Positions 42,563 through 43,595 of a stretch of 64,000 nt of DNA are shown here, one piece after another. A program made the translations under genes and the position numbers. Under the pieces are notes generated by a model that was not told where the DNA came from, did no database searches, and saw nothing but the letters and a program-made list of their open reading frames with translations. The stretch's first letter is position 1; the number at the start of each line of letters is the position of its first letter. This DNA comes from a virus: the IMG/VR virus record IMGVR_UViG_3300031760_000017; one strand, 5' to 3'.

Positions 42563-43595
42563 ACGAGTTAGTCTGGCCCTTAGCTACTTTTCCGCGGATC
42601 GGCGGGGTTGCCTAAAATAGGCAGCTAACGAGGTAGTCTTCTATTTAAAATTTTGGACATTTTAGGATAATCTGAAATGTGAAATTTTTATAATATATAG
42701 AAGATAATCTCGTGGGAAAAAATTACGATATTATCTCCAAAAAAATTAAAGGAGATAAAATAATGATAGGAATTTATAAAATTACAAATTTACTAAATGG
42801 TCATAGTTATATTGGATTATCTACTCATATTGAAGATAGATGGGAATATCATAAAAATCCATATAACTGGAATAGAGAAAAGAATAAATCTTTATACAAA
42901 GCAATTTTAAAATATGGTATCGAAAATTTTTCTTTTGAAATACTTGAATAGTGCTTACCAGAACAGTTAAGTGAAAAAGAAAAATACTATATTGAAAAAT
43001 ATAATACATATCATGCTGGTTATAATATGACTGCCGGCGGTGAAGATAATCAAGGTGAAAGTCATCCAAGACACAAATTAACAAAAGAAGATGTGATAGA
43101 TATTAGAACTAGATATGACAATCTTGAAAGAAAAAAAGATGTGTATTAGTTATATAAAGATAGAATTGGAGAAAGTGGTTTTTCTAAAATTTGGAAGGGC
43201 AACACTTGGACTTCTATAATGATGGAAGTTTACACTCCTTAGAATAAAAAATATCATTTACATGATACGGCAAATAAAGGCTCTCAAAATGGAAGAGCTA
43301 GATTAACTGAATAGGATGTAAGAGCTATTCGATTAAGAAGAAAGAACGGCGAAAAATTATCTGATGTATATGCAAATTATAAACATCTTTTAACCAAAGG
43401 GTCTTTTACGAATATTTGGTCGTATCAAAATTGGAAAAATATCGTAGTTTAAACCTGTATCGACTATCCCCTTTGTCGGGGAGTACATCTCTTATTGATA
43501 CAGAGATGGAAACAGTAGCGCCCTATGACTACAGTAAATGCGTTAGTACGAGGGCAAGAAATAGTCAGTGCCATTGGTAACAATGGATTAACACG
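42563..43595 (+). mobile_element. group I intron (IA2-like, T4 td-intron-like core) carrying a GIY-YIG homing endonuclease ORF
   Basis: Internal guide gccctt (42579-42584) pairs with the exon-1 end aagggU. The 3' core cgactatcccctttg...ggggag...gaaatagtcagtgcc resembles the td intron P7/P3 elements. The terminal G is at 43595. The spliced junction restores RMKG-L-GEM, matching the GyrB RYKGLGEM motif. Confidence 0.7.
42712..43452 (+). CDS. intron-encoded GIY-YIG homing endonuclease (I-TevI-like), 246 aa with 4 in-frame TAG
   Basis: IGIYKITNLLNGHSYIGLSTHIEDRWEYH (GIY...YIG...R...E). It continues through TAG to TAA at 43450-43452. Confidence 0.7.

Follow-up and report, generated by a model that had tools for sequence, protein, structure and literature searches.

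A predicted td-like group I intron with a TAG-containing GIY-YIG endonuclease gene in a phage gyrase-B-like gene

The 64,000-nucleotide (nt) DNA of virus record IMGVR_UViG_3300031760_000017 (the window) contains a GyrB/ParE-like topoisomerase gene in two pieces. The open reading frame (ORF) at 40849-42615 follows GyrB to ...YQIGRMKG and then runs through 17 unconserved codons to a stop. A 60-codon ORF at 43604-43786 carries the GyrB C-terminus onward. What lies between the two pieces, and could a single protein be made from them? Our analysis indicates that 42563-43595 is very probably a mobile td-type group I intron in the GyrB/ParE-like gene of a phage that reads TAG as sense. The boundaries of the insert, its covarying ribozyme, the family of its endonuclease, purifying selection through the TAG codons and the reassignment of TAG are established here. 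Splicing itself we infer from the sequence.

We scanned IMG/VR with the spliced protein as query, which returned 80 loci. Blastn alignments of the window with intronless relatives end at 42560 and restart at 43598, with 4 nt of subject sequence between them. The insert therefore spans exactly 42563-43595, is 1033 nt long and has G43595 as its terminal base. This confirms the boundaries and the terminal G given in a preliminary description of the locus. The comparison with the topoisomerase genes of relatives also defines the insertion site, and most loci are uninterrupted there. The intronless alleles P0122, P0127 and P0131, which share a 90%-identity cluster with exon 1, read ...GRMKGLGEMDVEETEE..., and the uninterrupted forms have 636-641 amino acids (aa). 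Uninterrupted proteins in this cluster indicate that the presence of the insert varies within a close population. Related inserts are found at the same site in L050, L053, L071, L081, L082, L083 and L084. Such closely related intron-plus and intron-minus alleles provide material to test homing and code-dependent expression. Blastn of 42400-43800 against GenBank phages gave no match. Among cultured phages, no GyrB-like protein above 35% identity and no endonuclease above 37% identity to those described here was found.

Exon 1 ends with ...CGC ATG AAA GGG T and contains no in-frame TAG. When 42562 is joined to 43596 in silico, T+TA forms a Leu codon, and the spliced reading is ...YQIGRMKGLGEMSIEETEETLTNPNNR... 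/ ...RMKGLGEMSIEETEE... (...GRMKG-L-GEMSIEE...). The joined frame and the intronless alleles agree with the earlier proposal that exon 1 ends ...RMKG + U and that splicing would give RMKG-L-GEM. The predicted protein has 634 residues and an intact KGLGEM motif; an exact look-up in the protein collection did not find it. Its Pfam domains are DNA_gyraseB, Toprim and DNA_gyraseB_C, the last of which covers residues 562-623 and spans the junction at residue 572. The next gene, at 44262-46604, encodes a GyrA/ParC-like protein with a beta-propeller C-terminal domain. This partner points to a bacterial-type gyrase/topo IV pair, not a T4-type topo II. The gene had been described as a topoisomerase II B subunit split at KGLGEM. 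The split stands, as DNA_gyraseB_C spans the junction and intronless alleles read through it; the enzyme, given the GyrA-like partner, is of the bacterial type. Judged from its sequence, the phage gyrase-B-like gene is interrupted by the insert. It should be annotated, here and in many relatives, as one spliced gene, not as a truncated 588-aa protein and a 60-aa orphan.

Sequence comparison identifies the insert as a T4-td-like (IA2-like) group I intron in which the ribozyme core helices are all present (Table 1). At the 5' splice site, U42562 is located opposite G42576 and would form a U.G wobble. The pairing of the guide gccctt with aagggU noted in the preliminary description is correct. Its offset of 17 nt is a trivial error, as the guide begins at intron position 14. 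The P and Q elements conserved among group I introns are represented by the P4/P5 segments. No P2 is found between P1 and P3. We considered the P3.1 and P3.2 hairpins as an unknown architecture and dropped this idea, since P3.1 is already recognised as optional in group I introns (PMC3873408). The tetraloop L9 is of the GNRA type, with GUAA in the window and GAAA or GUGA in relatives. The endonuclease ORF is interlocked with the core. Its last five sense codons double as the 3' strand of P6a, and its stop TAA overlaps the conserved core element AACCUGUAUC.

The helices are supported by covariation. We aligned 35 ORF-trimmed introns with MAFFT and counted pairs in a structure drawn up for the window. 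In these introns P4 and P6 do not vary and are thus uninformative. As a control, shifting the 3' partner by 1-2 columns leaves mostly 20-60% paired, with the short G/C-rich P7.1 and P9.0 reaching 80%. The both-side change in P7 replaces U-A with C-G in relatives. Hand comparison also revealed compensatory changes in P6a of L081. An ORF-deleted construct of the window folds at -117 kcal/mol, compared to -79 ± 4.8 for shuffled sequences (z = -7.85). Its minimum free energy (MFE) and centroid structures jointly recover every helix.

The guide changes together with the exons. Compensatory variants of P1 include GGAU/GUCC, GGGGU/GCCCC and GGCU/GGCC. In L248, P10 has an A-U to G-C change (the compensatory CCG/UGGG variant). 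Relatives with insertion sites in other genes have guides complementary to the exons found there. All 27 of 27 intron-bearing alleles have the exon context AAAGGGU|UAGG or a compensated variant. The K-G-L-G codons of 67 intronless alleles occur in 30 different combinations with synonymous differences. The uniform flanks of the intron-bearing alleles fit either a constraint from the P1 and P10 pairings or co-conversion of the flanks along with the intron.

We compared the window directly with the T4 td reference sequence (M12742.1). The 3' cores align as CGACTATCCC-TTTG--GGGAGTA in td and CGACTATCCCCTTTGTCGGGGAGTA in the window. P7 (GACUAU/AUAGUC) is identical and P7.1 near-identical, which upholds the earlier remark that this core resembles the td P7 region. 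In both introns, P7.1/P7.2 insertions are located between P7 and P3', GAAAC precedes P3', and the ORF is placed in the P6a loop with its stop codon at the core edge. Both introns interrupt a gene of DNA metabolism and encode a GIY-YIG nuclease domain, and in both the endonuclease ribosome-binding site (RBS) is buried in a hairpin (PMC2988022). Unlike td, which is found in a thymidylate synthase gene, the window intron has a GyrB-like host. It lacks the P2 of td and has instead two hairpins between P3 and P4, and it is without P9.1/P9.2. The C-terminal half of its endonuclease consists of tandem repeats and does not match the zinc finger or helix-turn-helix of I-TevI. The window ORF also contains reassigned TAGs, and the overall DNA similarity to td is too low for blastn.

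Table 1. Features of the gyrase-B-like locus, with pairing and both-side changes counted in the 35 aligned introns.
Feature	Position	Strand	Description	Basis	Paired	Pairs changed on both sides
tRNA cluster of four	396-1395		Gln-UUG, Gly-UCC, Arg-UCU, Cys-GCA
GyrB/ParE-like type IIA topoisomerase subunit B, exon 1	40849..42562	+	571 codons + 1 nt	colinear with intronless relatives
P1	42557..42581	+	exon AAGGGU 42557-42562 with guide GCCCUU 42576-42581	covariation	92%	4/6
Group I intron, td-like (IA2-like)	42563..43595	+	1033 nt; omega-G 43595	intronless alleles, covariation, fold
P10	42571-42575 with 43596-43600	+	guide GUCUG with exon 2 UAGGU	covariation	83%	3/5
P3, 5' strand	42583..42587	+	GCUAC with GUAGC 43515-43519; pseudoknot with P7	all 5 pairs change on both sides	95%	5/5
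P3.1 and P3.2 (names given here)	42590..42623	+	hairpins between P3 and P4
P3.1	42590-42607	+			97%	3/6
P3.2	42609-42623	+			86%	5/5
P4	42628..42713	+	ACGAG 42628-42632 with CUCGU 42709-42713, enclosing long P5 arm 42636-42705	Rfam alignment of relatives; MFE fold
P6, 5' strand	42714-42716	+	GGG with CCU 43454-43456	sequence; Rfam alignment of relatives
P6a, 5' strand	42721-42729	+	AAUUACGAU with AUCGUAGUU 43441-43449; ORF in loop L6a	fold; Rfam alignment of relatives
RBS hairpin (predicted)	42731..42758	+	UUAUCUCC 42731-42738 with GGAGAUAA 42751-42758; buries Shine-Dalgarno; AUG 42763	predicted
GIY-YIG homing endonuclease ORF	42763..43452	+	229 codons, in loop L6a; stop TAA 43450-43452
3' ribozyme core	43452..43595	+	P6', J6/7, P7, P7.1, P7.2, P3', P8, P9.0, P9, omega-G
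P7	43462-43467 with 43561-43566	+	GACUAU/AUAGUC		100%	1/6
P7.1	43468-43481	+		covariation	100%	2/4
P7.2	43486-43508	+		covariation	99%	7/7
P3'	43515-43519	+		covariation
P8	43520-43555	+		covariation	81%	5/5
P9.0	43568-43570 with 43592-43594	+		covariation	88%	3/3
P9	43571-43586	+	GUAA tetraloop	covariation	97%	6/6
Exon 2	43596..43786	+	finishes Leu codon (T|TA), then GEMSIEE...YNAE + stop

These structures bear on a different explanation of the locus, a gene split without splicing. The T4 39/60 gene is such a case. There, mobA, a homing-endonuclease element, likewise breaks a phage type II topoisomerase large-subunit gene, and the enzyme functions from split polypeptides (PMC2988022). In the window, pieces of 588 and 60 aa would be translated separately and then assemble. 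Gene callers do report two proteins (P0121, 588 aa, and P0123, 60 aa), and exon 2 has an in-frame ATG at 43604 preceded by AGGUGA. However, AGGUGA ends 1 nt before the AUG, too close for normal Shine-Dalgarno spacing, and this ATG encodes the M of the conserved LGEM, present in intronless alleles as well. The break would fall inside one Pfam domain, and the exon 1 product would gain a 17-residue unconserved tail. Unlike T4, which has no intron and whose two polypeptides assemble after translation, the window has a ribozyme flanking the ORF that should restore one frame. A cassette that merely splits a gene has no reason to keep a group I ribozyme with covarying helices and a guide that pairs with the ends of both exons. 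We therefore consider a split gene very unlikely.

The ORF in the predicted intron encodes a GIY-YIG endonuclease. Residues 2-88 match Pfam GIY-YIG (PF01541) with 31.4 bits against a cut-off of 22.6, and the best match in the Protein Data Bank (PDB) is 1mk0/1ln0, the I-TevI catalytic domain (E = 2.4e-5). R26, E73 and N88 align with R27, E75 and N90 of I-TevI, and all three are invariant in 21 homologues. Beyond residue 90, searches of Pfam and PDB gave no match, and no I-TevI-type DNA-binding region was found. Residues 100-229 instead read as two tandem repeats of about 50 aa (KLTxxDVxxIR...W). The ORF had been called I-TevI-like; this holds for the nuclease domain and fails for the DNA-binding half. 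More than 1500 homologues exist; of the 120 best listed, almost all have a length of 229 aa. The enzyme would cleave intronless alleles and so spread the intron. Indirect support comes from alleles more than 90% identical that differ in having the intron, and from the synonymous differences of intronless alleles at the K-G-L-G codons.

Four in-frame TAG codons are located in this ORF, at codons 63, 129, 160 and 184 (42949-42951, 43147-43149, 43240-43242 and 43312-43314). It contains no in-frame TAA or TGA, and none of 20000 shuffles of the ORF was free of both (0/20000). TAG makes up 19% of stop trinucleotides in the window, so that four TAGs out of four would arise by chance with a probability of about 0.0014. 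Over codons 64-229, downstream of the first TAG, dN/dS is 0.06-0.31 against seven relatives. All four TAG positions are common to L208 and L234, across a dS of 0.2-0.3. Elsewhere in relatives, the ORF has 4 TAGs in L053, 6 in L082 and 12 in L205; other relatives have none. The window as a whole is 87.7% coding with TAG as sense, and only then, with ORFs of 2883 aa (71 TAGs) and 1563 aa (26 TAGs). We conclude from these sequence patterns that TAG is reassigned to sense in the phage and used by the endonuclease ORF, which should be translated accordingly in annotations. The stop pattern, dN/dS and coding density bear out the earlier suggestion that an endonuclease with four TAGs has adopted the code of the phage.

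The same data decide against a decaying intron, in which the ribozyme may splice while the TAGs are real stops and the endonuclease is a pseudogene that yields only a 62-residue fragment. Group I introns commonly have degenerate endonuclease ORFs. The ORF is fragmented under the standard code, and some relatives have short or broken ORFs (L263, L216 and L177). However, a pseudogene would not be expected to have only TAG as its in-frame stops, no frameshifts, low dN/dS past the first TAG and TAGs shared with relatives, in a phage that needs TAG as sense for 88% coding. The pseudogene reading was rejected on the stop-codon pattern and dN/dS, and we regard it as highly improbable. Inteins often occupy conserved motifs of replication proteins (PMC4760082), but an intein or other protein-level element removed after translation is extremely improbable and is ruled out by the reading frames: the exon frame stops 17 codons past the junction, 1033 is not a multiple of three, there is no Hint domain, and Pfam matches nothing but GIY-YIG, in an ORF that is separate and has a start codon of its own.

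The amino acid inserted at TAG is probably Gln, as suggested by codon usage. CAG is nearly absent from TAG-using genes (0-1 per gene), which fits Gln. Examples of TAG-using genes are 3833-5752, 7690-8703 and 12811-13299, and TAG-free genes include 1491-3014, 30774-33263 and 33779-35017. Several TAG-free genes favor CAG over CAA. The genes of the window thus fall into two classes of codon usage, with TAG apparently in the place of CAG. The replication genes (GyrB-like, GyrA-like, ligase, DnaB-like helicase and SF1 helicase) are TAG-free. In the endonuclease, TAG/(TAG+CAA+CAG) is 0.50, at the top of the range in the window.

Other members of the endonuclease family use a different stop codon. 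At L071:5923-6612, a relative 63% identical and inserted at the same KG|LGEM site has six in-frame TGA and no TGG. All six are at Trp positions of the window protein. In the L180 endonuclease, also at this site, TGA occurs four times and TGG twice. No in-frame stops are present in the gyrase genes on either side in L071 and L180. With relatives that lack in-frame stops, relatives with TAG and relatives with TGA at Trp, the lineage exists in standard, TAG-sense and TGA-sense versions. We also correlated endonuclease TAG counts with recoding next to the intron in relatives; most of the flanking genes are early genes free of stops, which makes the correlation too noisy to be of use.

Taken with the RBS hairpin, these observations suggest how the predicted intron would function. 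The pre-mRNA would fold as a ribozyme whose guide pairs with the last six bases of exon 1 in P1 and with the first five bases of exon 2 in P10. External guanosine would attack after U42562, and exon 1 would then attack after G43595. The joined exons would encode the single 634-residue subunit with KGLGEM intact. The GIY-YIG endonuclease made from L6a would cut intronless alleles, leading to intron spread. Its translation would probably be delayed by the hairpin that buries its RBS. For I-TevI in T4, opening such a hairpin is reported to lower the efficiency of splicing. The four TAGs, at a density as in the TAG-using genes of the phage, could impose a second delay, as they would be readable only once TAG is decoded as sense. 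A TAG-bearing endonuclease gene would in this way be embedded in a TAG-free replication gene.

An equivalent RBS hairpin of different sequence is predicted in most ORF-bearing relatives. Variants are UUAUCUUACU/AGUGAGGUAA in L081 and L214 and GUCCUCCU/AGGAGGA in L205. By inspection, AGAUAAU at 42700-42706 in the 3' strand of P5 could also pair with AUUAUCU at 42730-42736, the bases by which the hairpin would mask the Shine-Dalgarno sequence. A folded ribozyme and an exposed RBS might therefore exclude each other.

The timing role that we infer for the TAGs and the hairpin follows known systems. T4 intron endonucleases have RBS hairpins (PMC2988022). Borges et al. described preferential recoding of an endonuclease whose group I intron interrupts an early gene of the TGA-recoded Agate phages, and proposed that recoding delays endonuclease production until late infection (bioRxiv 10.1101/2021.08.26.457843). 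As in Agate, the early-gene intron endonuclease of the window is enriched in the reassigned stop of its phage, and L071 with its six TGA at Trp looks like the Agate case. The two differ in that TGA is read as Trp there, whereas the window uses TAG, probably as Gln. The element belongs to a kind that is already on record and is a well-supported instance of it. The published proposal that synthesis of intron endonucleases is delayed by reassigned stops gains from it a case with TAG and, from relatives within its endonuclease family, one with TGA.

A broader scenario is conceivable, and we put it forward tentatively, as one we doubt somewhat more than we believe. A single intron and endonuclease lineage specialised for KG|LGEM may have spread over phages with three genetic codes and been recoded in each. 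The reassigned stops would then be no product of passive drift. Selection may have favored them, together with the RBS hairpin, as a gate that denies ribosomes access to the intron before splicing of the essential early mRNA. If true, the genetic code would be both a timer for a selfish element and a barrier to its spread.

Several observations weigh against the reading of 42563-43595 as a td-type intron with a timed, TAG-decoded endonuclease. A search for Rfam Intron_gpI, proposed in the preliminary description as a check, was negative on the window itself: no match was found in the window at the gathering threshold, nor in 42400-43800 at E up to 10. Two relatives that lack the ORF and are inserted at the same site match RF00028 along the whole model; their scores of 26.6 bits (E = 8e-5) and 28 bits (E = 2.2e-5) are below the gathering cut-off of 50 bits. 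The spliced-junction 21-mer has one match in metagenome contigs, in a distant intronless gene; this match is uninformative and gives no RNA-level support for the junction. In aligned relatives, the columns of the endonuclease TAGs are mostly Glu and some Gln, which makes Glu a second candidate for the amino acid at TAG. None of the four tRNAs in the 64,000 nt is a suppressor with the anticodon CUA, so the decoder of TAG must be encoded elsewhere in the genome. A scan for sigma-70 promoters and terminators around the intron, aimed at a signal that could relieve the RBS hairpin, found sites no commoner than in shuffled sequence. The timing role itself is drawn from analogy only.

The RF00028 model is weak on phage IA2 introns. 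Its alignment of the two relatives nevertheless places P4, P5, P6, P7, P8 and P9 on the same segments as our structure. The missing Rfam call lowers database support, not the structural case. The low scores extend to the whole family. A 17-nt core motif, AACCTGTATCGACYATC, is found in more than 120 IMG/VR contigs (loci L161-L280), in several host genes. We collected family members with four sequence anchors, which gave 52 members, about 30 of them at the KG|LGE site and the rest in other genes. Several have no ORF. At ten loci with ORF-less relatives, no family member was called at the Rfam gathering threshold, the sole match being a different intron in L279. Since a family in so many phage contigs scores below the threshold for group I introns, those of uncultivated phages are undercounted.

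Group I introns and homing endonucleases are numerous in essential genes of other uncultivated phages, namely the Jug phages (PMC12880540) and crAss-like phages (PMC7886860). In Jug phages, metatranscriptomes confirmed splicing of 37 of 76 predicted introns (PMC12880540). Those phages belong to other lineages, and where topoisomerase is named, it is among the conserved core genes and not as the host of an intron. Two group I intron reviews make no mention of a topoisomerase or gyrase host gene, which is weak evidence of novelty and concerns the insertion site only.

The gyrase-B-like gene is interrupted at a second site in some relatives. In L058, L059, L062, L070, L075, L254 and L264 and in protein P0133, a second intron is found at the Toprim D-x-D-G motif. 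This site corresponds to about 42342-42345 in the window, where the gene is uninterrupted. The GIY-YIG ORF of the second intron is more distant, with 35-39% identity. In L254 and L264 the D-x-D-G site is occupied by the same ribozyme family. The intron in L279 (2145-2369) is a different group I intron with an Rfam score of 98.7 bits, about 250 nt upstream of the family intron. It is apparently inside the same gyrase-B-like gene, which would then hold two unrelated introns.

Two further TAG-containing ORFs in the window were observed. A 265-codon ORF at 40059-40856 has four TAGs and Cys-rich motifs and ends 8 nt inside the gyrase-B-like gene. Pfam gave no match to it, and under the standard code just its last 110 codons are seen. 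The ORF at 49147-50091 has 314 codons and nine TAGs; its N-terminal part is coiled-coil-like, and GIY-YIG is matched at the C-terminus (Pfam E = 4.9e-8). The ORF is located directly upstream of the thyX-like gene at 50088-50942, which it overlaps, and it may be a free-standing endonuclease.

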